DNA of 64,000 nt from NCBI GenBank assembly GCA_038087875.1, contig CM075990.1, positions 3,784,001 through 3,848,000 on the forward strand. The letters run 5' to 3'. Positions 951 to 59,702 of the stretch are shown piece after piece. The DNA is from Malacoraja senta (taxonomy: Eukaryota). Below the pieces are notes generated by a model that worked only from the letters and a program-made list of their open reading frames with translations, was not told the origin of the DNA and did no database searches. The position numbers and the translations under genes were made by a program. Each line of letters begins with the position of its first letter. The stretch's first letter is position 1.

Positions 951-1954
951 CTACGACTAAGAGCATATAAATGGAGTCCTGCTGAGGAGATGATTGAGGA
1001 CCGCAATCACCTCGTGCTCTGGGATTTAGTAGCATTACTGGCGTCCCACGAGCGGAGTCAGCTGATGACCACACTCTGGTGTCCCCCCAACCTCCGGCAT
1101 TCCGGAAAACAACCTCCTCTTCCCCTCCAATTCACGGCAATACAATCAGCAACGTACTTGTTGACACTTCTCAGGATCAGCATGTCTATCGATTCGAGGC
1201 ACAAAAAGCTGGAGTAACTCAGCGGGACAGGCAGCTTCTCTGGAAAGAAGGAATAGGTAACATTTTGTGTCGAGACCCTTCTTCAGACAGAGTCAGGGGA
1301 GAAGGAGATACAGATAAGGAAGTGTAAGGTGTGAAAACGAGGGAAAGGGGATGGAGAGCAAGGAACATGTAGTATAGATCATTGTTAGAAGGTAGCAACA
1401 AAGCAGAAGGTGAAAATGAAGAAGCGTCTCGACCCGAAACGTCACCCGTTCCTTCTCTCCAGAAATGCTGCCTGTCCCGCTGAGTTAAGCCCTTGTCCCA
1501 CTTACGTGTCCTTGGCATGCTAATTACGCGACCTCATGATCGCGTTGAGGCGATGCTCCCACGAAGGTCGCGCGCAATTTCATGCGCCCGCACAACCGTC
1601 TGGAGCGCGTGACGTCATTTGAAGATGGGCACAAAATGTTGGAGTAACTCAGCGGGACCGGCAGCATCTCTGGAAAGAAGCAATGGGTGATGTTTCGTGT
1701 CGAGACTCTTCTTCAGTCTGAAAGAAGGGTCTTGACCCGAAACGTCACCCATTCCTTCTCTCCAGAGATGCTGCCGGTCCCGTAGAGTTACTCCAACATT
1801 TTGTGTCTATCTTCAATTTTCTTAGCCCCGCTCTTTTTTTTTTTTTTTTTTCCGTAAATGTTTTTTACAAGGAAATGTACAATTTCCGTAAATGTACAAT
1901 TTACAAGGAAGGGTAGAAAGCTCACACAATTTAAAAAACATTTACACAAAACTA

Positions 1955-4900
1955 TCAAATTAAAATATTAACATTTTTATCTATAATATATTCAACCTCC
2001 TGCGGTGACCAGCGTTCACAGAAGGCCTCCACAGTCCCCGTGGACACCGCGTGTTCCCTCTCTAGGGACACGCGGGAACGGACGAAACCCCGGAAAAGGG
2101 GCAGGCAGCCGACCGCTGTGCGGCCATCGACCGCCCGCTGCCTGGACCCGCGAATGGCCATCTTGGCCAGGCCCAGGAGCAGACCGACAGGGAGACCCCC
2201 TCCTCCCTCCCGACCCTCCCCCCTCTGTACCGGGTGCCCATAGATTAATAGCGTTGGACTAAAATGTAGCCAAAACTTGAGGAGCAGCCCTTTCAGATAC
2301 TCGAACAGGGGCTGCAACCTCTCGCACTCTATATACACGTGGAACACGGTCTCTTCCTCACCGCAGAAATGACACGCAGGGGAAGAGTCCGTGAACCGGC
2401 TCAAGTACCTATTACAGGCCACGGCTTTGTGCAAAACTCTCCACCCCAGGTCCCCGATGTAAAGGGGGAGGACTCCCTTGTAGAGAGACCTCCACTGGGG
2501 ACCGCTCCCCTCGTCAGGTGGTAACACGGACCGCCAGGGTGTGTCTGGACGGAAGACGAGAGCGAGGAAGTGGAGAGTGTGCAAGAGCAGCCTGTACAGT
2601 ACTCGCCTCTCCGCGCCACGGAATGGCACACTGGGCATCTCAGAAAGGCGGCTCATGTTGCATGGGGCCGGCTCTCGGGGAGGGTCCCGGGCCATGGGCC
2701 CTATGAACAATTCCGACTGAGCGGGGGTAAGCTCGTCCGGAATCGCTCCATGCACACGCCTCTCCTCGACACCCACCGTCACAGCCACGACACCCCCCTC
2801 CCCCTGAGGAGCAGGGCCCTGGCTGAAGGTGACCAAATTCCTGGCCTTCAGGAGTTCACGGTAAAAGCCAGGCAACTCCCGCCTAGCGCGTCGACTCATG
2901 CCCGCTACCGGGAGCCGGGAGCCCTCCTGAAGGCACCGCCCCTGACGGAAAAAGTACGTCGCCAGCACGTGCCATTTAGGAGGGTAGTCCGAGTAGACGT
3001 ACCTCCGCAGGGTCTGAGTCGGAGAGTCGCCCGCTGGGACGATGTCAGGCCAGTGTCTCTTAGGGGCTGTAGTTATAAACCAGCAGTGGTGGTCCTCTCT
3101 GCTCTGTAACCGGATGGTCCACTATGGTCCCATCCTCTTATNNNNNNNNNNNNNNNNNNNNNNNNNNNNNNNNNNNNNNNNNNNNNNNNNNNNNNNNNNN
3201 NNNNNNNNNNNNNNNNNNNNNNNNNNNNNNNNNNNNNNNNNNNNNNNNNNNNNNNNNNNNNNNNNNNNNNNNNNNNNNNNNNNNNNNNNNNNNNNNNNNN
3301 NNNNNNNNNNNNNNNNNNNNNNNNNNNNNNNNNNNNNNNNNACTACAGCCCTTCCCCGGTAAGAGAGCACACCAAGTAGGCCTGACCAACGTCCCAGCCG
3401 GGCGACCACTTTCGCCTCCAGCTCCTGCCAGTTCGCCGGTCACCCCATCTCAGCGGGACTCAGGTAGACCCCCAGATAGAGGAGGTGCGTGGTACTCCAC
3501 GCAAAACCTGCCATCTCCTCCGGCAGGGAGCCCACCTGCCACCCACCCACCAAGGGACCAGAACACTTCCCCCAGTTGACCCTGGCGGAAGATGCAGCCG
3601 AGAAAACCTGCTGGCACTCACGCATCCTCCGCAGGTCAACAGGGTCGGTGAACATCAGAAGGACATCATCGGCGTAGGCCGAGAGAACCACCTCCATCCT
3701 CGGCCCCGGTAAAGCCAGGCCTGTCAACCGCCTCCGGAGAAGGCACAGGAAAGGCTCGACACAGATGGAATACAGCTGGCCGGACATGGGACATCCCTGA
3801 CGAACCCCCCTCCCAAAGGGAATGGGGGCCAACAAAGAGCCGTTGACCTTAACAAGGCATTCTGCAGCAGTATATAACAGTCGGACCCAGGCCACAAAAT
3901 GCGGTCCAAATCCGAACACCTGCAGAGTCCCAAGAAGGTAGTCGTGCTCCACCCTGTCAAACGCCTTCTCCTGGTCGAGGGAGAGAAAGGCGACCGACTG
4001 ACCAGCCCCCTGGGACAGATGGATCAGGTCCCGGAGCAGATGGATATTGTCCTGGATGGAGCGGCCCGGGACTGTGTACGACTGGTCAGGGTGGATCACC
4101 TGGGACAGCACGGGACCCAGGCGATTCGCCAATGCCCGTGCAAAGACTTTATAGTCCGTGCTGAGGAGAGAGACCGGGCGCCAGTTCTTCAAAAGGCGAA
4201 GATCACCCTTCTTGGGCAGCAGGACAACAACTGCCCTGCGCCAAGAGAAAGGCATCTCCCCGGTCGCCAGGCTCTCCCCCAGGACCTTCATATAGTCACC
4301 CCCCAGGACATCCCAGAAGGCTCTAAGGTACTCCACAGTCAGCCCATCCAGCCCTGGAGACTTGCCCCTCCTGAGCTGGTGCAGGGCAACAGTCAACTCC
4401 TCCAGAGTTAGGGGATCATCCAGGTGTTCAGCCACATCATTGCACACTACGGGTAAGCCCTCCCACAGGACTTCTTTCGCATCCCCACTCGATGTGCCAG
4501 CCGAGAACAGAGTCCTGTAGAACTACCGAACTGAGGCACCAATGCTCTCTGGATCTGTGACAGAGGAGCCATCATCCGCAAGCAACTCTACAAGCTGCCT
4601 GCGGGCTCCTCGCCCCTTCTCCAGAGAAAAGAAAAAGGGGGAGGCGCGGTCCAGGTCGTGCAACATCTGGACTCGCGACCTCCCATACGCACCCCGGGAC
4701 CTCCTAAGCTGCAAGTCCCCTCAGTGCTCCCTTCTTCTCCTGGTATTCCTCCCACTCACACGAAGCCCCACCAGTCTGATCCAGACGAGCCTCCGAGTCG
4801 AGCAACTCTCTCTCAAGCCGTCCGATCTCGGATTCCAGCCCCTTGGTCGACCCCCTCGCATAGTCCTGGCAAAACTGACGGACGTAGACCTTCCCCACGT

Positions 4901-5746
4901 CCCACCACTGCCTTAGGGAAAGGAAACGCCCCTGCCTCTCTCTCCACCTCGCCCAGAACTGCCTGAATGAATCCCGGAATCGGCAATCCTCCAACAGCTG
5001 GCTATTAAAATGCCAGTACGCGGACCCTGCCCGTGTGCGTGTCGGGATAAAATCCACTCGCACCAGGCAATGGTCCGAGCATGGCGCCGGCTGCATGGAG
5101 GCCGTCGAAACACAGGAGACATAGGCCTTGGACACGTATAAATGATCAATACGGGAACCACCACCCTCAAACCTGTACGAGAAGGCGTTAGAGTCGGGAT
5201 GGAAATTCCGCCAAGCATCTACCAGCTCAAAAGAGTCCACCATCTCCCTCAAAGTCTTCACTGCTCCCGGGTCACGCTGAACGCCAGAGCGATCTCTTGT
5301 CTCGAGGGCACAATTAAAATCTCCCCCAAGGAAAACACACTCCCCACGGTCGATAGTATTCAACAACGTGGTCACTTCCCTTGTTAAGCGCGTCTGCATT
5401 GCGCCGATCTTGGGGGCGTACACATTAACGAAGTGTAATGGCACGCCATCCAAGCGCAAGGCCAGATACAGCAAACAGCCTGGTACAACCTCCTGCACTT
5501 TGAGGATCTCTGGCTGGAAAGACGGGGCCAACAAGAAGGCTACTCTACTCGATTTGGAGCTAAGATGACTCATGTAGACCCCCCCTTCCCACTCCAGGAG
5601 CCATGTGGGTTCATAACTAGCCACAGTGTGTGTTTCCTGCAGGAAGCTCACCGCATACCTCCTGTCCCTGAGCACTGAGAGATGGTGAAACCTACGGAGA
5701 GACCCCTGCCCCCATTGATATTCAGGCTGGCTATAGTGAGCTTCAT
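1955..5746 (-). pseudogene. Tx1-like ORF2 (APE endonuclease + reverse transcriptase + Zn finger), several frameshifts/stops
   Basis: Start MKLTIASLNING at 5746. APE motifs LQETH, NVYAP, GGDFN, SDHC; RT motifs KSPGLDG, WRPVSLL, DQEKAFD, GVRQGCP, YADD; C-terminal CHFC...HVYIEC. Confidence 0.9.
3142..3341. other. Assembly gap (200 N) inside Tx1 ORF2
   Basis: Run of N. Confidence 0.99.
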
Positions 5747-7842
5747 TTTGAAAGTACACTAGATCTTTTACCCCTCCCCGGTGATGGGTCGGAGCCGCCC
5801 CTACCCTTCTTCCCTCTCTTTAGGGTCTTAAAAAGCTCTTGGAACTGGCGCCTCTCATTTCTTACTAGCCCCGCCTCATTCCCCTTCTTCTGAAGGATGG
5901 CATGAATGGACTGCATGGGCGCCATCAGGTCCGACCAGCGGTCAACAGCCAAATCCACCTTATTCCTACTCCCTCTAGTTTCCTTTAAGAACTTCCGAAG
6001 TTCCCAGACTTCGACAAGTCGAGACACGGGGCCACGGGTGGAGCAGTCCGTCAACTCACTGTCAACGTACTCCGCGTACCCTTCCTCCTCGCACTCAATG
6101 TCCGAGCCCGAGTCCAGAAGGTTACTACTCTCATCCGCCTCGCTCACCCCTCCCTGTGAGGTGGGCATTCCAGCCACATCACACAGTCCCTCCTCTGTCA
6201 CCATCCCACCCCCAGGATCAGTGACAGGGGCAGGTACCAGTGCCTCTGACCGCGGCAAGCTATCTGACAATTTGCCAGTCTCCTGCACGCTCCCATCGCC
6301 CTCTGTAACCGGATTGGGAACAGTGAAGTCAGAGCAAGTCTCCGGGCCTTGCTGTAAGCGGGTCTGTCTGGAGTCCGACCTAAGGACACGATCCAAAACG
6401 ATCTTGCCCTCCTCCGCACCCAGGGTATCCGCCCCTGCACCGTCACCCAGAGAGTCCCCGTCCCCCACCACCAGGTGAATCCCCCCACTGTGGCCCTCAG
6501 GGGCCGATGTTACTGGAGTCTCCCCTGCTCCCTCAACCAGTGGGGCATCACACCCCTCAACTGGGCTTGTAGCCTCAACGGGGAGCTCATGCTGGGGACC
6601 CACCCCCTCACCCAAGTCCCCCCCTTCAGGCTGCCCCTGGTCATCCACTAAGCTAGCAGACGTGTTTTCTGGGGGAACAGCCCCCAAGAGCAATATATCT
6701 CCACTCTCAGGTGGTCCCAGACCTACAGAGGCATCCTCCCCCTCAGAGGAAACGTGCCCTGGGTACCCCACCTCAACAGGAGGGGAAGGCTCCCCTTCAG
6801 GTTGCCCCTGAACTTCAGGGCCCTTCTCTGTATCGGAGGACCCATGCCTCCTCCTCTTCGAAGCACTGGCGTACGGTGGTACGGTGAGCTCCATTGTAGA
6901 AGCCTCTACCTCCACACTACCGTCTATCTCAGAGGCGAGCATGAAATTATCTGCTGCCTGGGGACCCGCTTGGAGGTGATCATCTTCTAGGGGACCCGCC
7001 TGGAGATGTTTCTTCTTTTTCTTGACTTTCCTCCCCTGCTGATGCTCCCAAACCTTCCCATCCACCCTACGCACTTCTCCGGCATCCACCGCCACAGGTA
7101 CGGGACATGGGGGTGGTGGGGGGATAGGGGTTGGGGGTAGGGGAGTAAAGCCTTCACGGGCCACCGTGATAAAACCAGCAGCCCCAGATGGGCCTGTAGT
7201 GCTTTCCCGTGCCATCGTGGTTGAACTGGCAGCCCGGGTCCTGGGACAATTCTTGCGAAAATGCCCCACCTTTTTGCAAGTGTGACAACGCACTTGGCCC
7301 GCATTCCAGAACACGCGATAGGAGAAATCATCCACCTCCACCTCAAAACTCCCCTCCGTGTCCGTCCCCTATGCCAACTGTATATACACGCGACGCTTGA
7401 ACGTATATATATGCTGCATCTCAGGATCGTCAAACCTGTACAACAGTTTGGTGAGCCCTGACCGCACCTCCCCCAGCTTCCTTACATGTGGGAGCAGGAA
7501 CGCATCCGGAACAAGTGGGAACGTTGGACAGAATGACCGGGAAAACGGGACCCCCCATGGGTCCACCGCCGCAAAAATCCCCCCTGCTGTTACCCCCCTT
7601 TCCAGAGCCAGAGCCACCGCCTGTTCAGTCTTTAGTATAACCACAACCTTCCCACTGACCACCGCGCCCGAGACGATGGCTTTCTTGCCAACAGTCTCAC
7701 CCAACGCATCTAGAAAGGCCTTTAAGGGCAGGTTGCTCTTCATGTACATTTTTACACCATATGTGCGCCCCATCAACTCGTGGCCCTCAGTCTCGGAGAC
7801 TGCTGACCGTGCAGCAGCTGCATAACTCTGAGGGGCCGCCAT
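5743..7842 (-). pseudogene. Tx1-like ORF1 (gag-like, zinc knuckle), frameshifted near 7370
   Basis: Starts MAAPQSYAAAA. ORF pieces 7369-7968 and 5743-7341; contains CHTCKKVGHFRKNC followed by a long acidic/Pro-rich region. Confidence 0.85.
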
Positions 7843-9289
7843 CTTTAGGGCGTGGCACAACACACAAAGTATCAGTAGTTTATATCCAAAGCAGTCTTTC
7901 TGCTGTTGCTGCACCTCCACTCTTTTCCAGCAGTTAAATAGTCTTGTGAAGGCTTTCTTGATAAGCAACAGAAGCAGTCTCCTCCTGATAAGATAGGAAT
8001 GTCCGTGCCAATCCTCCCCATCGTCAAAAATGGAGCTTCCTTATGCTTCTTCCTCAGGTCTCCGGCGCCTCCCCAGCTTCAACGAAATCCAAGGCACTGT
8101 TGCCGTTCTTACCCAGCCCACCTGGACCGGGCAAGTCGGTGTAGGAGGGAGCTTTCCGATGTTACTGACCACAAACACCACTCAAGACTCAGCTCCCACT
8201 CGTTCAAGTGTAACTTGGCCTTCCGCCAGCCACTGCCGCTCCTACGACTTTCCAGATACACGGACAAATCCTCCCTAATTAGAGGAATCTTTGAACAAAG
8301 AAAGTCTCTGCAGATCGACAAAGCTCTGAACTGCAAAGTCTGACTGCTTTTGTTTCTCCCCGCCAAACAAAACCTTCCGAAAAGTTCATCCAATCCTCCC
8401 CGCCAGCAGAACAGCTCCTCACCTGGCCCCGCTCTGGGAGTAGAAGTGGGAGCGGATCCGGATCCGCAACGGCCGTGAGTCCCAGGCCGAGTTCGGCGAT
8501 CGTTTGCCTGCTTCTTCTGCTGTTGAGGGTGAGACGTTGCGTCGCGCCGGGGTCTTGGGCCTGTCCCACTTTGGCCGTCAGTTACGCGACAGGCCGTTGG
8601 CGCGCGAAGATTTCGGAGCGCCGCGCGATGTCGCGCACAACTCCATACCCCTCCGCGCTTCTTAGTGGGACCGGCCCCGCGCGGCCACACGATGCCCGTG
8701 TGCCTCAACGCGACGACGAGGTCGCGTAATTTGCGTGCCAAGGACACGTAAGTGGGACAGGCCCATTTTGTGCCTAGAATCGATAGACATGCTGATCCTG
8801 AGAATGCCAACAAGTAATTGGTGATAGGTAGCAGGTTGTCACATTGCAGCACCAATAATACTTTCTGCCTTTAGAGGTGTTGGCTGCACTGGCTGCGATC
8901 AGTGAGAACTCATGAATAATGGAGGATGCAGAGTGGCTTCATATTACCAGTAACAAGGAACTCTTTCAGCTGTCAGGGTTGATTCAGTGAATAGTGTTGC
9001 TTACTAATTATATACATTTCAAGATTATAATGCATTAAATTGCATGTCCTGTTCAACCACTGATGAAGGCATTGCGTTACATCCCAATCTCACTGGGCAA
9101 GCACATAAACATCAGCATGTACATTCAGCTTCAATCTGAAGGAACTGCAGATGCTGGTTTAAACCGCAGATAGACACAAAAAGCTGGAGTAACTCTGCGG
9201 GACGGGCAGCATCTCTGGAGAGAAAGAATGGGTGACGTTTCGGCTCGAGACCCTTCTTCAGACCGGATCATCTTGCAACCCCAGAATGG

Positions 9290-9750
9290 GGGGCGCATCA
9301 CAGCACGGTTTGGCAACAGCTCCGGCCTAGACCGCAAGAAATGGCAGAGAATTGTGTTCGCAGCCCAGACCATCGCACAAACCAACCTCCCTTCCATTGA
9401 CTACGTCTACACCTCACGCTGCCTCGGCAAAACCACCAGCATAATCAAGGACCAGTCGCACCTTGGCCACTCTCTCTCTTTTCCCCTCTCCCATCAGGCA
9501 AGAGGTACAGAAGTGTGAAAACGCACATGTCCAGATTTAGGGACAGTTTCTTCCCAGCTGTTATCATCAATTGAACCATCCTACCAACAACTAGAGAGCA
9601 GTCCTGAGCTACGATCTACCTCATTGGAGATCCTCAGTCCATCTTGGACTTTACTGGCTTTATCTTGCACTAAACGTTATTCATGTTATTCCCCTTTATC
9701 ATCTATCTTTACACTGTGGATGGCTCGATTGTAATCATGTATTGTCTTTT
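9290..9750 (+). mobile_element. Rex/Babar-derived 3' fragment; its tail recurs about ten times in the window
   Basis: FGNSSGLDRKKWQRIV..AQTI...LPSI...RCLGK..SIIKD, followed by the tail ...ggctcgattgtaatcatgtattgtc. Confidence 0.72.
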
Positions 9751-10740
9751 AAGGTGCGAGGGGAAAGCAACTCAACGGGACAGGCAGCATCTCCGAAGAG
9801 AAGGAATGGGTGACGTTTCGGGACGAGACCCTTCAAACTGATGTCAGGGGAGAGGGAGATACATAGATAAGGAAGTGTCAGGTGTGAAAACAGTGAAATT
9901 TGAGTTGCCAGACAGCCATACTAAGTGAAAAGCAACGATACCATTTAACACAATTTAACATAAGCATCCACCATAGTGGAATCCACATTCCTCACTGTGA
10001 TGGAAGGCAATAAAGTTCAATCATCTTCCTCCTTTGTTCACCCCTGGTGGTCAAGTCCTTTGATCCCTCAGCAGTCGGTCCGATGTCCGAAGCCCTCGCG
10101 TCAGGATGATGGAAACTCCGGCGTCGGGACGGATCGGAACACTGGAACGGAGCATGGAGCTCCCAAGTCGGCCTCTTCTTACCGGAGACCGCGGGCTTCA
10201 TGGTGTTAAAGTCCACAGGACCCCGCGGTCGGAGCGCTTTCGCTGGCGATCCTCGGCAAAGGATCGCCCGCTCCGCGATGGTAAGTCCGCGTCGCGCCCG
10301 CGGCTTGAAGCTCCTGCCCAGTCCCCTGGAAAGGCCGCACCGCTCCACGTTCTTTGGCCGCAGGAGGGGGCGGAGATGCGACATGAAAAAAAATCGCATC
10401 TCCGTCGAGGTAAGTGGCTGAAAATGAGGTAAGTTTATTGTCACATGTCCAGTGAAAAGCTCTCGTTGTGTGCTAACCAGTCAGTGGAATACATGATTAC
10501 AATCGAGCCGTCCACAGTGTATAGATACATGATAAAGGGAACGACATGAATAATGTTTAGTGCAAGATTAAGCCAGAAAACTCCATCCTCCGCTCTACGA
10601 CGAGATACATGATAAAGGGAACGACATCCCACCAACATCCTCTCTCACTGCTCCCCCTCTGTAATTCCACCTGCTCTCCTAGTTTCACACCTTACACTTC
10701 CTTATCTCTGTATCTCCCTCTCCCCTGACATCAGTCTGAA

Positions 10741-11193
10741 GGGTCTCGTCCCGAAACGTCACCCATTCCTTCTCTTCAGAGACGCTGCCGGTCCCGCTGA
10801 GTTACTCCAGCATTTTGTGTCTATCTTCAATTTTCTTGGCCCCGCTCTGGGAGTAGAAGAGGGTGCGGATCCGGACCGCAACAGCCGTGAGCCCCAGGCT
10901 GAGTTCGGCGATCGTTGGCTGCTTCTGTTGCTGTTGGAGGTGAGACGTTGCGTCACGCCGGGGTCTTGGGCCTGTCCCACTTTGGCCGTCAGTTACGCGA
11001 CAGGCTGGTGGCGCGCGAAGATTTTGTTTGCTGCAAAATTTCGGAGCACCGCGTGATATCCCGCACAACTCCATACACCTCCGCGCTTCTCAGTGGGACC
11101 GGCCCCGCACGGCCACACAATGCCCGTGCGCCTCAACGCGACGACGAGGTTGCGTAATTTGCGTGCCAAGGACAAGTAAGTGGGACAGGGCCT
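10741..11193. mobile_element. MITE family A, right half only
   Basis: Colinear with about 16890-17349; ends gggacagggcct+TAA. Confidence 0.8.
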
Positions 11194-16668: not shown

Positions 16669-17349
16669 AGGGCCTGTCCCACTTACGTGTCCTTGGCACG
16701 CAAATTACGTTGAGTCGCGACGGTCCCGCGAAGGTCGCGCGCGACTTCATTCGACCGCACAGCCGTCTGGAGAGCGTGACGTCATTTGAAGATGGACACA
16801 AAGCTGGAGTAACTCAGCGGGACCGGCAGCATCTCTGGAGAGAAGCAATGGGCGATGTTTCGTGTCGAGACTCTTCTTCAGTCTGAAAAGAAGGGTCTTG
16901 ACCCGAAACATCACCCATTGCTTCTCTCCAGAGATGCTGCCGGTCCCGCTGAGTTACTCCTGCATTTTGTGTCTATCTTCAATTTTCTTGGCCCCGCTCT
17001 GGGAGTAGGAGTGGGGGCGGATCCGGATCCGCAACGGCCGTGAGCCCCAGGCCGAGTTCGGCGATCGTTCGCCCGCTTCTGCTGCTGTTGAAGGTGAGAC
17101 GTTGCGTCGCGCCAGGGTCTTGGGCCTGTCCCACTTTGGCCGTCAGTTCCGCGACAGACCGTTGGCGCGCGAAGATTTCGTTCGTTACAAAAATTTCAGG
17201 AGCCCCGCGCGATGTCGCGCACAACTACGTACCCCTCCGCGTTTCTCAGTGGGACCGGCCCCGCGCGGCCACACGATGCCCGTGCGCCTCAACGCGACCA
17301 CGAGGTCGCGTAATTTGCGTGCCAAGGACACGTAATTGGGACAGGCCCT
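16669..17349. mobile_element. TIR MITE family A, intact copy (Harbinger- or Crypton-like)
   Basis: agggcctgtcccact...gggacaggccct with TAA on both sides; internal Penelope-derived palindrome; CpG-rich. Confidence 0.88.
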
Positions 17350-19004
17350 TAATGCATCAACACAAAGCGATAAGGCTAGGGCGCTAATGTTATGTTATGT
17401 TATGACTGGTTCAGAAATTTAATCTGTTGACCGTCACTATAGCAGCTCCGTTGATTAGTTTAGTTTAGTTCATTGCTACGTGTCCCAAGGTACAATGAAA
17501 AGGTTTTCGTTGCGTGCTAACCAGTCAGCGGAAAGACAATACATGATTACAATCGAGCCGTCCACAGTGTACAGATACAGGATTAAGGGAATGACGTCTA
17601 TTGCAAGATAATGTCCATAAAGTCCAATTAAAGGTAGTCCATTGGGTCTCCAATGAGGTAGATAGTAGCTCTGGACTGCTCCCTAGTTGTTGGTAGGATG
17701 GTTCAGTTGCCTGATAATAGCTGAGAAGAAACTGTCCCTGAATCTGGAGGTGTGCGTTTTCACACTTGTCTTCTGGAATTTAGAAGGATGAGAGGGTATC
17801 TTATAGAAATATATTAAGTTCTTAAGGGATTGAACAGGCTAGATGCAAGAAACAAAATCCCCATGTTGGGGGAGTCCAGAACCAGGAGTCACAGTTTAAG
17901 AATTTTGGACTGAGATGAGGAAAAACATTTTCACCCAGAGAGTTGTGAATTGTGGAATTATCTGCCACAGAAGGCAGTGGAGGCCAATTCACTGGATGTT
18001 TTCAAGAGTTAGATTTAGCTCCCAGGGCTAACGGAATCAAGGGATGTGGGGAGAAAGCAGGAACGGGATACTGATTTTTGATGATCATATTTAATGGCGG
18101 TACTGGCTCGATGGGCCGAATGGCCTACTCTTGTACCTATTTTCTATGTTTCTATGGCAGGAGATGGGAGGGGAGGTGAGGGAGTGAGTGAGGGGAGGGT
18201 TGTGTTCAACTCCTCGCTTCCGTAAGTCAACAGCCAACTCTGCCATCTTGTTGATGTCAAGAGCTAAGTTGGTGTCCTGACACCATGACACAGAGTTCTC
18301 TGTCTCTTTCGTGTTCACCGTCTCAGAGTTGCTGTTGTTGATCGGGCCGACAACAGTGGTATCATAGAGGAACTTGAAAGAACAAGCTGCCAGTGTACTT
18401 GGCCACGCAGTCAGGGGTGAACAAGGAGCAGAGCAAGGAGACTGGGCACCTAATCCTGAGGTGGAAAAAAGGTCATGACCAATTCTAATGTGTAGGAAGG
18501 AAATGCAGATGCTGGTTTATACCGAAGGTAGACACAAAATGCTGGAGGAACTCAGCGGGTCAGACATCATCTCTGGAGGGAAGGAATAGTCGGAAGGACT
18601 GCAGGAAGAAGGGTTCCGACTCGAAACGCCACCTTTTCCTTCTCTCCAGAGATGCTGCCTGACCAGCTGAGTTACTCCAGCATTTGTGTCTATCTATGAC
18701 CAATACTAACTTTGTTTATTTGCTCGAGATTCCAGCGCTTGCAGTTCCTGGTTATGTGTATCCTGTACCTTGTACCTTGTATCTTCACCCAGAAGGTGAT
18801 AGAGTCGTAGAGTCATAGAGTGAGAGAGCATGGAAACAGGCCCTTCGGCCCAACATTCCCACACCGGGGACCAAGTTAATAAACGCAACTTTTGCTCAGT
18901 TAACCCCAGGATGGTGTTCATGTCCCAGTGTCCGATGGAGACGTGGTGTTCATGTCCCAGTGTCCGGTGGAGACGTCGGTTTGAATCCCATGCCAGAGCA
19001 TGGG

Positions 19005-19300
19005 ATATCTTTTGGCCATCCAGTGTTCAGGGGAGTGGGGAGAGCAGAGGATGGTTTGCTCCTGGGCCAGGGCAAGCTGGCCATTTGTGGGACACAGCGC
19101 CAGGCAGAAGAAGGTTCCGCTCAAGCCGAGTGCCTGACCCTTTTCCGGGGGTTACTACGTCCGTGCCCGGGTGGCCCTTGAGAAAGAGCACGGGATGCCC
19201 GCGGCCACCAGTGGTGATTCCGGGACCGCTGGGCACCGCGGGGGGGGGGGGGGTTCAATGCATCCTAGACCAGGACTGTAATGCAGGCATTTAATTTAAT
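19005..19300 (+). mobile_element. Degenerate 3' fragment of a second Tx1-like element
   Basis: FGHPVFRGVGRAEDGLLLGQGKLAI...CLTLFRG aligns by eye with the C-terminus of the 1955-2968 ORF. Confidence 0.75.
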
Positions 19301-20218: not shown

Positions 20219-23200
20219 TACAGACAGCACCCGAGTTCAGGATCGAACCCGGGTCTCTGGCGCTGTGAGGCAGCAACTCTACCGCTGCGCCGCCATTGAG
20301 TATTTAGTATTAAAACTATTTGGTGAATTTTGTAATATGGTGGTGGGTGCGTTGGTATTGTTTGTTTTGTAAATATTATTATTGGAAATAGTTGAATACA
20401 TTTTGTTTTGATTTTTTAAAAAGAAGCACATTTGCCACAAGAAAACATAGAGATGAGGGAGAATATTTTCATCAATTCACCGTTCTCAATAATAAATTCT
20501 TCATAGATTTCCAGAGACATTTCTGTGGGCAAATATTAGGCCAGAATACATAAGGCAGCAAACCAAGAATGCCACAGGAATACAGTGGACGTGGATTAAA
20601 TTATTATACAATCAGACATTTCTTTTCTGGCTGAACCTGCTCAATGTTTCATACCTGGTTATGGAATTAATGCAGAAAACGTTTCATCATTTCAACAAGT
20701 AGAAACTAGGAACTGCAGATGCTGGTTTATACCGCAGATAGACACAAAATGCCGGAGTAACTCAGCGGGTCAGGCAGCATCTCTGGAAAAAAGGAATCGG
20801 TGGCGTTTCGGGTTGGAACCGTTCTTCAGACTGAAGAAGGGTCCCGACCCGAAATAGCACCTATTTCTTCTCTCCAGAGATGTTGCCTGACCCACTCAGT
20901 TACTCCGGCATTTTGTGTCTATTTAAATGCAAATGCCTTTTTACCAAGGAAAGACCCAAAATGCTGCAATAACTCAATGGGTTCATAAGTTCACAAGTTG
21001 TAGGAGTAGAATTAGGCCCTTCAGCCCATCGAGTCTACTCCGCCATTCAATCATGGCTGATCTCTGCCTCCTAATTCTATTTTCCTACCTTCTCCCCATA
21101 ACCCTTAACACCCGTTCTAATCAAGAATTTGGCTAACTCTGCCTTAAAAAATATCCACTGACTTGGCCTCCACAGCCCTCTGTGGCAATGAGTTCCACAG
21201 AATCACCACCCTCTGACTAGAGAAGTTCCTCCTCACCTCCTTTCTAAAAGAGCGCCCTTTAATTCTGAGGCTATGACCTCTGAAGAAGGGTTCCGTACCT
21301 GAAATGTTACCTATCCATGTTCTCCAGAGATGCTGCCTGACCCGCTGAGCTGCTCCAGCACTTTGTGTCTATGTTTCAACAAGGTGCGTACAGCAGAATA
21401 CTGTCGTTCCTTCTCTTCTCACCCACTTACTCCCTGGGGAATAACAGGGCCTTTCTGATTACATGTGTTTCCCCCATGGTCAGCTGCCTCCCCACAACTG
21501 AGAATGGGGTTAGGAGAGAGAGATAGATCAGCCATGATTGAATGGCAGAATAGACTTGATGGGCCGAATGGCCTAATTCTGCTCCTATCACTTATGACCT
21601 TATGAGCCTGAAAGCCCGGACATTCAGACACAGCAAGAATTTTGTCCGCACAATTCTATCCAGTTCCTGAACCAATAACTTCTGCCACATCACTTTCCCG
21701 GATGTGCTGCCACAGTGCAACACGTAACTCTTTCATTTTCATTCATTTGTCATTGTACGTTGATGGTTTGCACTGATACTGATTGCACTACAATCTTGCA
21801 CCATCCTCTTGTTTTGCACTTGTTATGAGCTTATGAACTACCTGGCACATCCAGAAGCACCCCGTCCCATCTAGCCAACACAACATCCCTTTCTCATTGC
21901 TCCTACCCTTCAAACCTTGCCATGCACGCGCTTGCGATTTCGAAGTGATCTGAAGTGTCCCGATGCTCACTGTGTGTCCGTTCAAACGGTCTAGTGGACT
22001 GGTTTTAAGATACAGCGTGGAGACGTGCCCTTCGGCCCACCGGGTTCATGCCGTTCACTAGTTCCATGTTGTCCCTCTTTTGCAACCCGCCCACTAGGGA
22101 CAATTTACAGAGACCAATTGACCTGCAAACCCGCACGTCTTCAGGTTATGGGAGGGAACCGGAGATCTCAGAGAAAAACCACGCGGCCACGGGGAGAACG
22201 TACAAACTCCGTACAGGCAGCACCCGAGGTCAGGATTGAACCCGGTTTCTGGCGCTGTGAGGCAACAACTCTACCGCTGCGCCACCGTGAGCCGATGGGC
22301 CCAAAGAAAAGCACAACTTGGTGGCACATTGAGGTAGTGGTAGACTCGCTGCCTTATAGCGCCAGTGACCCGGGTTCGATCCTGACCACGGGTGCTATCT
22401 GTATGGAGTTTGTACATTCTTCCCGTGACTTGCGTGGGTTTTCTCCGAGATCTTCGATTCCCTCCCGCACTCCAAAGGCTTACAGGTTTGTAGGTTAATT
22501 GGCTTTAAATGTTAAATTGCCCCTGGTGTGTGTAGGATAGTGTTAGTGTGCGGGGATCGCTGGTCGGCGCGGGCTGAAGAGCCTGTTCCTGTGCTGCATC
22601 TCTAAACTAAACTAAACTAAAGAACTCAAAAACAATTTCAAAGCTGAGTTGTCAATCTACTGCTGGTTGTGATCCAACGAGTTCAAAATTGGGGGCTGCA
22701 GCAGCGGAATATAAATGAGAGGAAGTACAGTTGGGGTGTCCAGTGCTATGGCCAGACACCCCCTTGAGCACTGTCCCAATGCCCAGAGTTGGATACAAAA
22801 TGAGACATTGCTGAATGCTGAACAAAGGCAGCTCAGGACTGGGACACTCTGCCAACGGACTGGGTTACAAAGACAAACTGGAGAAACTTCAGTTTGAAGC
22901 AGTGAACTTCAGAAGGGAACACCGCATGTGAATACTGAAAAGTGAGTTCAGGATTGAAAACGGACGGCCCTTTTCCACGTGCAGAATGCTGAACAGATGC
23001 GATTGTTCCTTGGGTACAACAGCTAAGAAGATAAAATAAAAACCAGAAGAATCAATTTAACAATGTAATGGGCAAAGAACTTTGAAGGGCACGTTGGCAC
23101 CAGGAACATGGCATATCTCTGTGTACTGCCTCAGTGACTTTCGACTTTAGAGATACAGCATGGAAACAGGCCCTTCAGCCCACCGAGTCCGCACGACCAG

Positions 23201-26061: not shown

Positions 26062-27488
26062 TGAGTTACTCCAGCCATTTTGGGTCTAGCCTACAAACCT
26101 GTACATCTTTAGAAAACAATCTAAGTTTGTCTAACCTCTCCTTGTAGCTAATGCCCCCCTAATTAAGGCCGCATTCTGGGAATCTTTCCTTCTCTCCAGA
26201 GATGCTGCCTGTCCCGCTGAGTTACTCCAGCATTTTGTATCTATCTTCAGTTTAAACCAGCATCTGCAGTTACTTCCTACAGGTTTGTAGGCTAATTGGA
26301 TTCGGTAAATTAGCTTCGGTGAAATTGTAAATTGTCCCAAGTGTGTGTAGGATAGTGTTTAGTTTAGTTTAGTTTAGTTTAGAGATACAGCACAGAAAAC
26401 AGGCCCTTTGGCCCACTGGGTCCACGCTGACCAGCGATCCCAGCATATTAACACTATCCTATACTCACTAGGGACAATTATTACATTTACCAAGCCAATT
26501 AACCTACAATCCTTCGCGTCTTTGGAGTGTGGGAGGAAACCGAAGATCCCGGAGAAAACCCACGCAGATCACGGGGAGAACGTACAAACTCCGTACAGAC
26601 AGCACCCGTAGTCGGGATCGAACCCGGGTCTCCGGCGCTGCATTCGCTGTAAGGCAGCAACTCTACCGCTGCGCCACCGTGACCGCCCTAGGGAGTGTTA
26701 GGGAGAGTGTGCGTGCGGGGATCGCTGGTCGGCGCGGACCCGTGTGGGTCGAAGGGCGCGTTTCCGCGCTGTATCTCTAAAACTGAACTGAAACTAAACT
26801 GGAGCTGGAGTGGGATGTTGCATGCACACTGATGCCTCGTCTGTTGTCATTGCTGCTTGCCAAGAGCGCAGGTGGAGAGTCATCACCATTCACAGCTGCA
26901 CAAACTGGGACTGAGAGAGAACGCACTGTTCATCCCCAGAGCAGCGTTAGAGATGCCTGGTGTACAGCATGAGACCATCTGATCCCACTGAACCAGCCTT
27001 AAGTTAGCACTCAGTGCAAGTTGCTGCCAGGTTTTACCTCATTAATAAGCAAGTCAGCCCTGGACAGAATCCACACCGAAAGGTCATTTTTACTCCACAC
27101 CCGTGACCTTCTGGTTGTGACAATAACTTCAGTCATTTCCTCTATCTTTGAAAAAAACTGTTAATTAAAAGTCTGTACCAGCGTGTCGACGTTAGCAATG
27201 TGTGCCGATGTGGCGTGGAGGAAGGAACTGCAGATGCTGGTTTAAATCGAAGATAGGCACAAAAAAAGCTGGAGCAACTCAACGGGACAGGCAGCATCTC
27301 TGGAGAGGAATGGGTGACGTTTCGGGCCGAGTCTAAAGAAGGGTCTCAACCCGAAACGTCACCCATTCCTTCTCGCCAAGGATGCTGCCTGTCCTACTGA
27401 GTTTTGTGTCTATCTTGTGCCAATGCAACAGTGTGTGCTCTTGAGTTTGAGATTAGTTTATTGTCACGTGTACCAAGGTACAGTGTAA

Positions 27489-28070
27489 AGGGCCTGTCCC
27501 ACCAGCATGCGACTGCATGCGGCAAGCGCGACCAAACGTGGTGGCTTGAGGCGTATGGCCTCGCGGGGCCGGTCCCACTTCCAACCGCGGAGCCGTATGG
27601 AGCTGGTCCCGACATCATACTCACCAATCAGCTGGGCAGGAGGCGGGCCGACTGAATTTGGACGTCGCACGGCGTCGGGCCGTTACGTCATCACGCAACG
27701 GCATGCTGGGCGGTGACGTCATCGCGCAACGCCACGCTCTAGGCGTACGCCGTCAAGATGCTGCGTTCGGCGTCAAGACACTGCGTACGGCGTCGAGGAG
27801 GTGCGTACGCCCGTCGAGGCGGTGCGTACGCCCGTCGAGGCAGTGCATACGCCCGTCGAGGCGGTGCGTACGGCCTCAATGCGGCAGCGTACGGCCTCAA
27901 TTGGACAGTGTCAGTTTTTCGGAGCCCCGCGCGGTGTCGGGACCAGCTCCGCACAACTCCATACGGCTCCGGCGATCGAAGTGGGACCGGCCCCGCGAGG
28001 CCGCACGGCTCAAGCGACCACGTTAGGTCGCGCTAGCCGCATGCAGTCGCATGCTCGTGGGACAGGCCCT
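27489..28070. mobile_element. TIR MITE family D with internal 21-bp tandem repeat
   Basis: agggcctgtcccac TIRs; the unit ggcggtgcgtacgcccgtcga is repeated at about 27790-27870; flanks TAA/TTA; interrupts a Rex-type tail. Confidence 0.85.
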
Positions 28071-30000: not shown

Positions 30001-30221
30001 GAAGTAACTGCAGATGCTGGTGTAAACCACAATTACACACAAAATGCTGGAGTAACTCAGCGGGACAGGCAGCGTCTCTGGAGAGAAGGAATGGGTGACG
30101 TTTCGGGTCGCGACCCTTCTTCATACTCTTCAGGGTCACAACCCGGATCGTCACCTATTCCTTCTCTCCAGAGATGCTGCCTGTCCCGCTGAGTTACTCC
30201 AGCATTTTGTGTCTATCTTCA
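30001..30221. repeat. Head-to-head (palindromic) Penelope pLTR pair; others at about 40-290, 18490-18695, 20706-20925, 27215-27420, 58360-58600
   Basis: Inverted arms ...atgctggagtaactcagcgggacaggcagc.../...gctgcctgtcccgctgagttactccagcat... Confidence 0.8.
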
Positions 30222-43603: not shown

Positions 43604-43961
43604 AGCCCCTGTCCCACTGTACGAGGTAATTCAAGAGTTCTCCCGAGTTTTCCCCTGATTCAAACTCGGAGAATGTCCGTAGCGGCTCGTCCAGGAGTTC
43701 GTGGATGTCTCGTAGCGGCTCGTACGAGTAAAAAGTAACAATTTTTTTCATCACTAGTATTTTATTACTCCTGGACATTTTTCACAGTGTTGAATAAACG
43801 TCACGAGTTTACTGGATTTCCCGAGTATCTACCGTTACTCGTACGAGCCGCTACGAGACATCCACGAACTCCTACGGACCCGCTACGGACCTTCTCCGAG
43901 TTCGAATCAGGGGAAAACTCGGGGGAACTCTTGAATTACCTCGTACAGTGGGACAGGCCCT
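43604..43961. mobile_element. TIR MITE family B inside a CR1 fragment
   Basis: TIR ...ctgtcccactgtacgaggtaattcaagagttc; flanks TGA/TTA. Confidence 0.85.
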
Positions 43962-45346: not shown

Positions 45347-45745
45347 AGGCCCTGTCACACTTACGTGTCCTTGGCACGCAAATTACGCGACAGGCATCTT
45401 ATGGCCGCGCGGGGCCGGTCCCACTGAGAAGCGCGGAGGGGTATGTAGTTGTGCGCGATATCGCGCGGGGCTCCAAATTTTTTGTAGCGAACGAAATCTT
45501 CGCGCCACCGGCCTGTCGCATAACTGACGGCCAAAGTGGGACAGGCCCAAGACCCTGGCGCGACGCTACGTCTCAACTCCAACAGCAGCAGAAGCAGGCA
45601 GACGATCGCCGAGCTCGGCCTGGGGCTCACGGCCGTTGCGGATCCGGATCCGCCCCCACTTCTACTCCCAGAGCGGGGCCAAGAAAATTGAAGATAGACA
45701 CAAAATGCTGGAGTAACTCAGCGGGACCGGCAGCATCACTGGAGG
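45347..45745. mobile_element. MITE family A, half copy in opposite orientation
   Basis: TTA+aggccctgtcacacttacgtgtcc; reverse-complement match to 16940-17349. Confidence 0.8.
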
Positions 45746-52724: not shown

Positions 52725-53042
52725 AGGGCCTGTCCCACTGTACGAGCTAATTCAAGAGCTCTCCCGAGTTTAAAAAAAAAATCAAACTCGTGGTAAGCAC
52801 GTAGAATGTACGTAGCGGGTACGTCGGAGCTCAGGACGTCTCTTCACGGCTCGTAACGCTAACGGCAAGTACTCGGGAAATGCGGTAAGCTCGGGAAGAC
52901 TCGTGAAGATTTTTCAACATGTTGAAAAATGTCCATGAGAGCCCCGAGTACCTACGAGCGGCTATTACCGTAATTCTCCGAGTTCGAATCAGGGGAAACT
53001 CGGGAGAACTCTTGAATTAGCTTGTACAGTGGGACAGCCCCA
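52725..53042. mobile_element. TIR MITE family B inside a CR1 fragment
   Basis: TIR agggcctgtcccactgtacgagctaattcaagag; flanks TAA/TTA. Confidence 0.85.
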
Positions 53043-58040: not shown

Positions 58041-58428
58041 ATTCACACGGCTAAAAGTAGCAATGGGATATAGGAGAGGCCAAAGGAGACACAAGGAACA
58101 GCAGATGCAGGGCTCCAAAAAAAGACACAAAGTGCCGGAGTAATTCAGCGAGGGTCAGGTAACTTCAAACTGAATGTTAATAGGTGATGTTTTGGTTAAG
58201 GTCCCGTCTTCAGACTCAAGAACATCACCTATTAGCATTGAGTCTGAAGAACTTGAAAAGACACCTTACTTTTGGTCTTCTCTGGAACATGCAGGTCCAG
58301 AACTCTAACCAATTGGCCTTTAACAATAATAAAAATGAACTGCAGATTCTGAATTATACCAAAGATAGACACAAAATGCTGGAGTAACTCAGCAGGTCAG
58401 ACAGCATCTCAGGAGACAATGGAAATGT

Positions 58429-58501
58429 GACGTTTCGGGTCGGGACCCTTCTTCAGATTCAATGTTTATAGGTGACGTTTCGGGTCGGGACCCTTCTTCA
58501 G
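58429..58501 (-). ncRNA. Two tandem minimal hammerhead cores 45 nt apart
   Basis: ctgaagaagggtcccgacccgaaacgtc twice on the minus strand. Confidence 0.6.
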
Positions 58502-59402
58502 TCTCAGTCTGAAGAAAGGTCCTGACCCAAAACGTCATCAAGCCCTGTTCACCAGAGAAACTACCTGACCTGCGGACTTACTCCAGCACCTTGTGTCTTT
58601 TTTAAAATATGGAAAAGACCAGCTTAGTTTAGCTTAGCGATACAGCATGGAAACAGGCCCTTGTCTCATCGAGTCCACACCAACCAACGATCACCCATAC
58701 ACTAGCACTGTCGTACACGCCAGGGACAATTTTGTTTACCAACGCCAATTAACCTACTAACCTGTACGTCTTTGAAATGTGGGAGGAAACCAGAGCACCC
58801 GGTGAAAACCCACACGGTCACAGGGAGAACGTACAAACTGCATACTGACGGCACCTGTAGTCGGGATCGAACCCGTGTTTCAGGTGATGCGAGGCAGCAA
58901 CTCTACCGCTGCGCCCCCGTGCCGCACTAGATCTGTTAATAATGCAACAAAAACATCCGTTCTGATGGAGTTGAACAGCTTAATTCATTAAAGTTCTCCA
59001 TTGGTTTAAGAAATCCCAAGCTTAAACAAGACAACCCTCTTTACTGAAACCAGTCTGAAGAGGGGCCCCAACCTGAAATGCCGCCTATTCATTTTCTCCA
59101 GGGTGTTAATCTCAATGTGTTAATCCAGTACTTTGTGTCTTTTTTTTTTGCAAGCAAGCATCAGCAGTTCCTTGTTTCTACAAACCATCCCTTATAGTAT
59201 TCTGTGCAAGCCACTACATTGTCCACCAGAATTTATAAATTCAAATGTCATAGGAGAGCAATTAGGCCACTTAGCCTGTCAAGTCTACTCTGCCACAACA
59301 CTATAATCCCATGGCTATTCACCACAGTAATATTGTTCGACACTGACCCCTTCAAACCCTCCTGCTAGTCTTTGTTAAGATTCAAGAGTCAAGAGAGAGT
59401 AA

Positions 59403-59702
59403 AGGCCCTGTCCCACTTTCCCGAGTTACTCCCGAGTTTTCCCCTTGATTAGAACTCTGAGAATTATGGTAATAGCCATTCGTAGGTACTTGGGACTATT
59501 TTTTTTAACTCGTGGACATTTTTCAACATGTTGAAAAAACGCCCCACCTTACCTGATGCCCCGAGTTCCTACGGCTGGCATTACGAGCCGCTACGATACA
59601 TCTACGGACTCCTACGGGCTCGCTACCGACATTCCCCGATTTCGAATCAAGGGGAAAACTCAGGAGAGTTCGTGAGTAACTCGGGAAAGTGGGACAGGGC
59701 TT
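59403..59702. mobile_element. TIR MITE family B-related
   Basis: TIR aggccctgtcccactttcccgagttactc; flanks TAA/TTA. Confidence 0.82.

Follow-up and report, generated by a model that had tools for sequence, protein, structure and literature searches.

A Tx1L-related LINE inside a Harbinger-like non-autonomous element of Malacoraja senta: a candidate case of site preference

A stretch of 64,000 nucleotides from Malacoraja senta (GenBank assembly GCA_038087875.1, contig CM075990.1, positions 3,784,001 to 3,848,000; hereafter the window) contains a long interspersed nuclear element (LINE), whose 6.6-kb body lies on the minus strand at 1834-8423, flanked by 11-bp target duplications inside a non-autonomous DNA element of 680 bp. 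Judged from its reverse transcriptase (RT), this LINE is a member of the Tx1L sub-lineage, and its family is multi-copy in four sequencing runs. The explanation favoured here is that the family has a preferred insertion site midway along a non-autonomous element of Harbinger type, which is considered probable; the likelihoods given in words to this and to three other explanations are the authors' judgement.

The nesting of a Tx1-clade LINE in a miniature inverted-repeat transposable element (MITE), as proposed in a preliminary description of the stretch, has been confirmed by several features. On the plus strand, sequence inspection and an empty-site search place the target duplications at 1823-1833 (tagccccgctc, LINE 3' end side) and at 8424-8434 (tggccccgctc, LINE 5' end side), with 10 of the 11 letters identical; their length is given as 11-12 bp, since a twelfth T is ambiguous with the LINE tail. 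The run of 18 T at 1834-1851 is the poly(A) tail of the minus-strand element. A 16-mer spanning the empty site has four matches in the window when up to two mismatches are allowed (1819, 10833, 16985 and, on the minus strand, 45670), all of them exact, while 0.07 were expected and four matches were reached in none of 100 shuffled controls. Once the LINE and one duplication are removed, the host aligns without gaps across the site with all three sister copies, found at 10731-11193 (+), 16669-17349 (+) and 45347-45744 (-). Moreover, outer inverted repeats of 58 nt (1494-1551 and 8702-8759, 91% complementary) surround the composite. The sisters had been described as intact, and the site is indeed uninterrupted in all three, but both ends are kept only in 16669-17349, the left end being absent from the other two. 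Counted from the left end of the host, the LINE inserted at 345 bp. The sequence at the first nick is rich in G+C and contains a single T, in contrast to the TTTT/AA site of L1 (PMC1950540).

The anatomy of the Tx1 clade is present in the window copy, with two open reading frames (ORFs), all on the minus strand. A 5' untranslated region (UTR) of about 580 bp (7843-8423, the LINE 5' end being at 8423) is followed by ORF1 (5743-7842; 699 codons, with a CCHC zinc knuckle and one internal stop at 7369-7371), by ORF2 (1955-5746; APE endonuclease, RT and C-terminal zinc-binding region) and by a short, A/T-rich 3' UTR (1852-1954). The ORF1 stop and the ORF2 start overlap as ATGA, with ORF2 beginning at 5746. 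Pfam matches were obtained for Exo_endo_phos and RVT_1, one of the five pieces having no match; the zf-CCHC match is weak and below the cut-off (E 0.0016), and that of zf-RVT is just below it (E 1e-5). The N-terminal part of ORF1 is 88% identical to an unnamed protein (P0173). ORF2 is broken by frameshifts near 5702 and 4717 and by three stops in the RT stretch, and is interrupted by 200 N at 3142-3341. At six places (7371, 7512, 7550, 5702, 4717 and 3440) all four runs mapped read differently from the window copy, so that the lesions are private to it; the copy is dead, full-length but decayed.

The kinship with Tx1L is supported more strongly than had been claimed. The RT is 61% identical, over 99% of its length, to ORF2 of Xenopus Tx1L (P14381), the corresponding values being 62% for a turtle protein (P0040), 64% for a sturgeon protein (P0032), 75% for a stingray piece (P0029) and 82% for an unnamed ENA protein; the remaining ingroup rows are at 46-53%, with teleost and unnamed Tx1 matches in the tree set at 47-53%. 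The identity of the APE domain to that of Tx1L is 41%. In an IQ-TREE analysis of 43 rows, the RT joins the stingray and ENA rows at 99/99, and these then join Tx1L, the sturgeon, the turtles and one unnamed row at 100/100, forming a group of nine rows outside which the sampled teleost Tx1 elements fall. The tree is rooted by midpoint only, and 35 of the protein matches and 7 of 18 loci were selected for it. The preliminary description had proposed placing the element against Tx1L, Keno, Dewa and Koshi; the first of these placements was obtained, while the tree is without named sequences of L1, Keno, Dewa, Kibi or Koshi, and the protein searches returned none under the last four names. The turtle, sturgeon and stingray Tx1L-like ORF2s (P0040, P0032, P0029) belong to the same supported RT group, and their records name no target. 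A mis-predicted protein of Amblyraja radiata also contains a stretch that matches an APE piece at 82% identity. Pieces of the LINE family are built into two RefSeq gene models, P0029 (stingray, VWA7-like) and P0162 (skate, GPR83), which are likely annotation errors.

The question of whether many copies share the insertion site has been approached through public sequencing runs. Part of the stretch is present in 20 of 23 listed runs, and four of the runs, each from a different organism, were mapped on 1800-8520; unmapped runs with shares under 0.31 were not used. The mapping covers the 5' junction, 1800-1860 with the 3' junction being left out, and summed run depths were not taken as copy numbers, except for a rough bound in run X1. 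All 30 bins of 1800-8520 have depth in all four runs. The main-path contigs of X1, followed from the LINE 3' end to its 5' end, have depths of 57, 53, 43, 34, 46, 29, 28 and 19, and this fall from 57 to 19 is as expected from independent truncated insertions. The junction contig of this run (216 nt, depth 19.4) aligns to 8237-8450 with no break at 8423; it is the only contig over 8391, the adjacent LINE contigs have depths of 27.6 and 28.6, and its end falls at the point (8453) where, at k=31, the assembly path would join the high-copy MITE. X1 holds about 34 million 31-mers, which gives a single-copy depth of at most 0.15-0.29 for a genome of 1-3.5 Gb, and at least 67-129 copies reach the LINE 5' end, an estimate that assumes k=31, a minimum count of 2 and a whole-genome library, the library type not being on record. 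Because the contig crosses 8423, and one locus by itself would yield such an assembly in only 0.4-2% of cases, the 5' junction is probably common to many copies. Furthermore, the host family (family A) makes up no more than 3.9% of the window once the LINE is set aside, which supports targeting.

Several observations weigh against a preferred site. On the MITE side the junction contig aligns over 27 letters, fewer than the 31 required by the bridging rule; a depth of 2 at the junction would also agree with its mean depth, and it is one contig from one of the four runs, among the 32 of 23,996 pieces listed. No joint links a LINE-internal place to 8424 among the 15 listed of 145, nor does any joint with letters in between end at 8424 among the 12 listed of 42, and internal deletions at single-copy level do appear among the joints listed. 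Loose ends before 8424 number 42, 49, 44 and 14 contigs in the four runs, with the empty-site consensus at 0.81-0.90 agreement. Since no listed joint reaches 8424 and the loose ends with the empty-site consensus are few, 5'-truncated copies at exactly this site look scarce. In addition, a related older Tx1 fragment, the degraded 3' part of another Tx1 family, lies outside the MITE at 19020-19300 (+), 71% identical to 1996-2185. Two further classes of contig ends are uninformative: no loose end behind 8423 is found among the 24 listed of 2,170, and those listed inside the LINE resemble variants of related subfamilies and say nothing of the flanks. The site-specific insertion originally suggested is likely rather than proven, a 5'-truncated copy at the site being missing from the rows listed.

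The alternative that survives best, possible although unlikely, is hitch-hiking: a Tx1 element without preference would have landed in a MITE once, and a Harbinger transposase that recognised the terminal inverted repeats (TIRs) would then have multiplied the 7.3-kb composite, with truncated Tx1 copies elsewhere. Such a course accounts for a multi-copy full-length junction together with the missing truncated junction among the rows listed, and the lowest per-place depths are near flat, as for whole units, in X15 from 5865 to 8020 (about 6,200-9,800) and in X17 from 6116 to 8075 (about 220-440). The LINE and its host are also of similar age, the LINE diverging by 3.6% (144/3,958) from the X1 contigs and the host by 5.6% and 9.1% in pairwise comparison with the intact sister; age therefore does not separate targeting from hitch-hiking, a possibility raised and tested by Kojima for SINEU-3 (PMC4494074). 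On the other hand, a chance insertion followed by large amplification would be required, the ends of the window composite are damaged with no matching outer duplication, depth in X1 falls from 3' to 5', and the lineage includes a target-specific member.

An ordinary nested insertion of a non-specific LINE in an abundant repeat, with the X1 contig being the orthologous locus or an assembly path, is improbable. The coverage of family A, with related TIR families making up 7.3% of the window and nested repeats crowded there, would suit it; flanks that are unique and thinly covered might also be trimmed off as tips, leaving only a path that enters a high-copy repeat (the authors' own reasoning), and the endonuclease loop is short and glycine-rich, of a length also seen in distant enzymes. 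The singleton outcome, which the preliminary description had regarded as refuting, is nevertheless disfavoured by the low expectation for assembly of a single locus in X1, which moreover applies only if that organism shares the insertion, and this argument comes from one contig only. Finally, very improbable is a common 5' junction produced by transcription, in which a master copy in the MITE is read from the CpG-rich right half of the host and daughters take a 5' extension of MITE sequence with them to any landing place: the right half of the host, upstream of the LINE (65% G+C, CpG observed/expected 1.2), the coverage of the 5' junction only in the read data and the 5' extensions known for SINEU-2B in Mariner-N4_AMi (PMC4494074) are in its favour, yet it needs the window copy or an orthologue as source, and that copy has private stops and frameshifts.

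Returning to site preference, a mechanism may be outlined. In target-primed reverse transcription, the nicked 3' end primes the copying of LINE RNA. A full-length polyadenylated RNA, with putative expression of the ORF1 and ORF2 seen in the anatomy, would be the starting point. The APE endonuclease would then nick the plus strand right after ...CCCCGCTC(T), and the freed 3' end would prime reverse transcription on the poly(A), as the orientation and the tail suggest; a second nick 11-12 bp away would yield the duplication observed. Many copies may use the same site, as one multi-copy junction contig indicates without proving it, and the abundant, dispensable host would act as a safe harbour. 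The window copy decayed afterwards, as observed. Occasional carriage by a Harbinger transposase is possible, not shown: the MITE had been proposed as a possible vehicle, and both TIRs do remain around the composite, but its right end and duplication are lost. Only a single composite has been seen, and nothing about it shows that LINE and host moved together.

The choice of target may be reflected in the endonuclease. The betaB5-betaB6 hairpin loop shapes target choice in L1-EN loop grafts (PMC1950540). This loop, located in 126 of 181 proteins scanned, has seven residues here and is glycine-rich, while that of Tx1L has 11. Among the six relatives that are at least 55% identical, five also have seven residues, three of these forming one cluster, and the sixth has eight; seven residues occur as well in 15 of the distant (<40%) endonucleases scored; by contrast, 10 of the 11 proteins at 40-55%, and the turtle and sturgeon proteins, have or keep the 11-residue loop. 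The single X1 contig across the loop has one gap, placed elsewhere, so that the short loop is a family state. The loop is thus not of the 11-residue Tx1L type, and the specificity of Tx1L is not simply transferable, a further point against the preference proposed. The short loop predicts a target other than that of Tx1L, in agreement with (T)GGG after the nick here and AGTT in Tx1L (PMC1950540), and it could as well mean relaxed specificity.

As regards the host, the complete sister (16669-17349) is 681 bp long; its TIRs measure 42 nt, and TAA flanks it on either side. In the composite, the TTA target of the host is kept on the left (1485-1487, +) inside a high-copy repeat whose uninterrupted copies carry TTA there. 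The left TIR (1488-1551, +) has one G fewer than in the intact sister, its terminus being one base short, and the right half (8435-8764, +) has copies of the terminal motif inside it at 8557 and 8677 and ends in the right TIR (8702-8764, -), where the last base, the target duplication and seven flank bases are deleted. Five more elements with the host terminal motif are found in the window (27489-28070, 43604-43961, 52725-53042, 59403-59702 and 60779 to about 61180). Three of them sit in repeats with empty copies in the window, which give a target site of three bases. The four two-ended ones compared are flanked by TAA on their left side (by TGA in one case) and by TTA on their right, an oddity in that the flanking copies differ at the middle base.

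Host ends read AGG inward, and the base outside TAA varies. Because of the three-base TWA site and the AGG ends, the host looks to be of PIF/Harbinger type, a better fit than Kolobok or piggyBac. PIF/Harbinger elements have a TTA/TAA duplication (PMC3014272), and a strict TTAA 4-bp duplication with RR..YY ends is described for Kolobok (PMC9587614, PMC6004289). As a candidate, a TTAA or Kolobok-like host would agree with the RR ends, but none of five two-ended copies has TTAA on both sides and the empty sites are of three bases; a piggyBac host of the Tx1D type (TTAA, YY-type ends) was likewise rejected, given the AGG ends and the variable base outside TAA.

The host has also captured a 198-bp palindrome (1619-1816; 95-nt arms, 89%), present as well in the sister at 16786-16982, which is built from two inverted units of a very common repeat and ends 7 bp before the LINE target duplication. 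By its motif, the core is putatively minimal-hammerhead-like and Penelope-like. Minimal hammerhead and Penelope motifs have been described (PMC7761336); Rfam gave no match in the window at gathering score.

Compared with known systems, the closest parallel in lineage is Tx1L/Tx1D of Xenopus laevis, which shares the RT sub-lineage, the two ORFs, the APE-RT-zinc region and the nesting in a non-autonomous element with TIRs. The Tx1L target duplication is of 23 bp, longer than the one found here. Tx1D was called a non-autonomous piggyBac by Kojima in 2015 (PMC4494074), unlike the Harbinger-like host described above, so that Tx1D, suggested earlier, is not the nearest analogue of the target. The specificity of Tx1L has been proven biochemically, its endonuclease nicking in vitro almost only its own target (PMC1950540), while that of the present element is proposed from sequence.

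A nearer published analogue of the target is the crocodilian Tx1-9_AMi, whose preferred insertion point, according to Kojima 2015, lies about 300 bp inside elements of three Harbinger families (PMC4494074); a Tx1-clade LINE in a Harbinger-type element and a similar end distance (345 bp against about 300 bp) are common to both, a comparison made by description only, and the site here follows a captured palindrome. Kojima also described Tx1-Mar and SINEU as targeting Mariner-N4_AMi, a case in which the host is likewise abundant, non-autonomous and of similar age, and the same question of targeting or hitch-hiking arises; those elements differ in their Mariner host and Keno-related lineage. There, hitch-hiking was tested with truncated copies, and targeting was concluded from 77 of 88 truncated SINEU-3 copies (PMC4494074). 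By analogy, the present LINE may work like Tx1L/Tx1D and Tx1-9_AMi/Harbinger, site specificity and carriage being not proven.

Tx1/Tx1D is cited by Cosby 2019 as a safe-haven case (PMC6719617), and targeting by Tx1 elements has already been published for piggyBac, Mariner and Harbinger hosts; with the concept known for three DNA-transposon superfamilies, the surprise is modest, and a case from cartilaginous fish would be new as to group. The papers listed in the literature searches do not describe any Tx1 element from a skate or ray within a Harbinger host; Repbase and Dfam, outside that search, may hold both families. If targeting holds, the habit of Tx1L elements of living in DNA transposons extends to cartilaginous fish, and two naturally occurring endonucleases, about 41% identical, become available that differ both in target and in loop length (7 against 11 residues); the loop concerned is the one grafted in L1-EN retargeting (PMC1950540), so that the pair would directly test APE target choice. 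Furthermore, with about a hundred or more near-full-length copies per genome, targeting and hitch-hiking are resolvable by counting.

A broader scenario, rather doubtful at present, would have the Tx1L sub-lineage descending vertically since the split of rays and bony vertebrates, staying in DNA transposons while switching hosts. The order in the RT tree is rays, then sturgeon, then frog and turtles. The ray branch would have moved to a Harbinger-type MITE with a loop shortening of four residues, possibly reading the end of the palindrome rather than sequence alone, and full-length copies would also have been spread by the host transposase. If true, this would be a natural retargeting of an endonuclease by loop deletion.

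Some minor observations concern the neighbourhood and the wider distribution. In run X7 only, per-place depth is about fourfold lower between 6485 and 6767 (window 6481-6770), and the reading offered is that a subfamily either stops at this point or has a different ORF1 from there. A distant RT remnant at 61990-63177 (-), 23-26% identical to Tx1 proteins, belongs by its sequence to another LINE clade. The common repeat of about 100 bp, at a TTA of which the composite sits, is often an inverted dimer (37-256, 1619-1816, 16786-16982, 18524-18695, 20736-20922, 27244-27403, 30034-30221 and 58362-58606) and also occurs as many single arms in the window; the window has 20 matches to a pattern for its putative hammerhead-like core, and the repeat is probably Penelope-related.

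Scans for the LINE family in metagenomes confirmed none of 80 peptide candidates and gave seven loci by 19-mers, all unrelated beyond the pattern, and two scans of viral contigs gave no copy (0, and none of one candidate). Prokaryote genome contigs had neither a copy of the family nor a match for the common repeat, and yielded distant Tx1-like RTs, 34-43% identical, at 18 loci. Contigs of one bacterial metagenome-assembled genome (L008, L010-L012, L014, L015, L018-L022 and L024) each carry several Tx1-like RTs, spaced 8-13 kb apart and 36-42% identical to the window RT; these contigs probably come from a host in whose DNA a site-specific LINE is arrayed in tandem.

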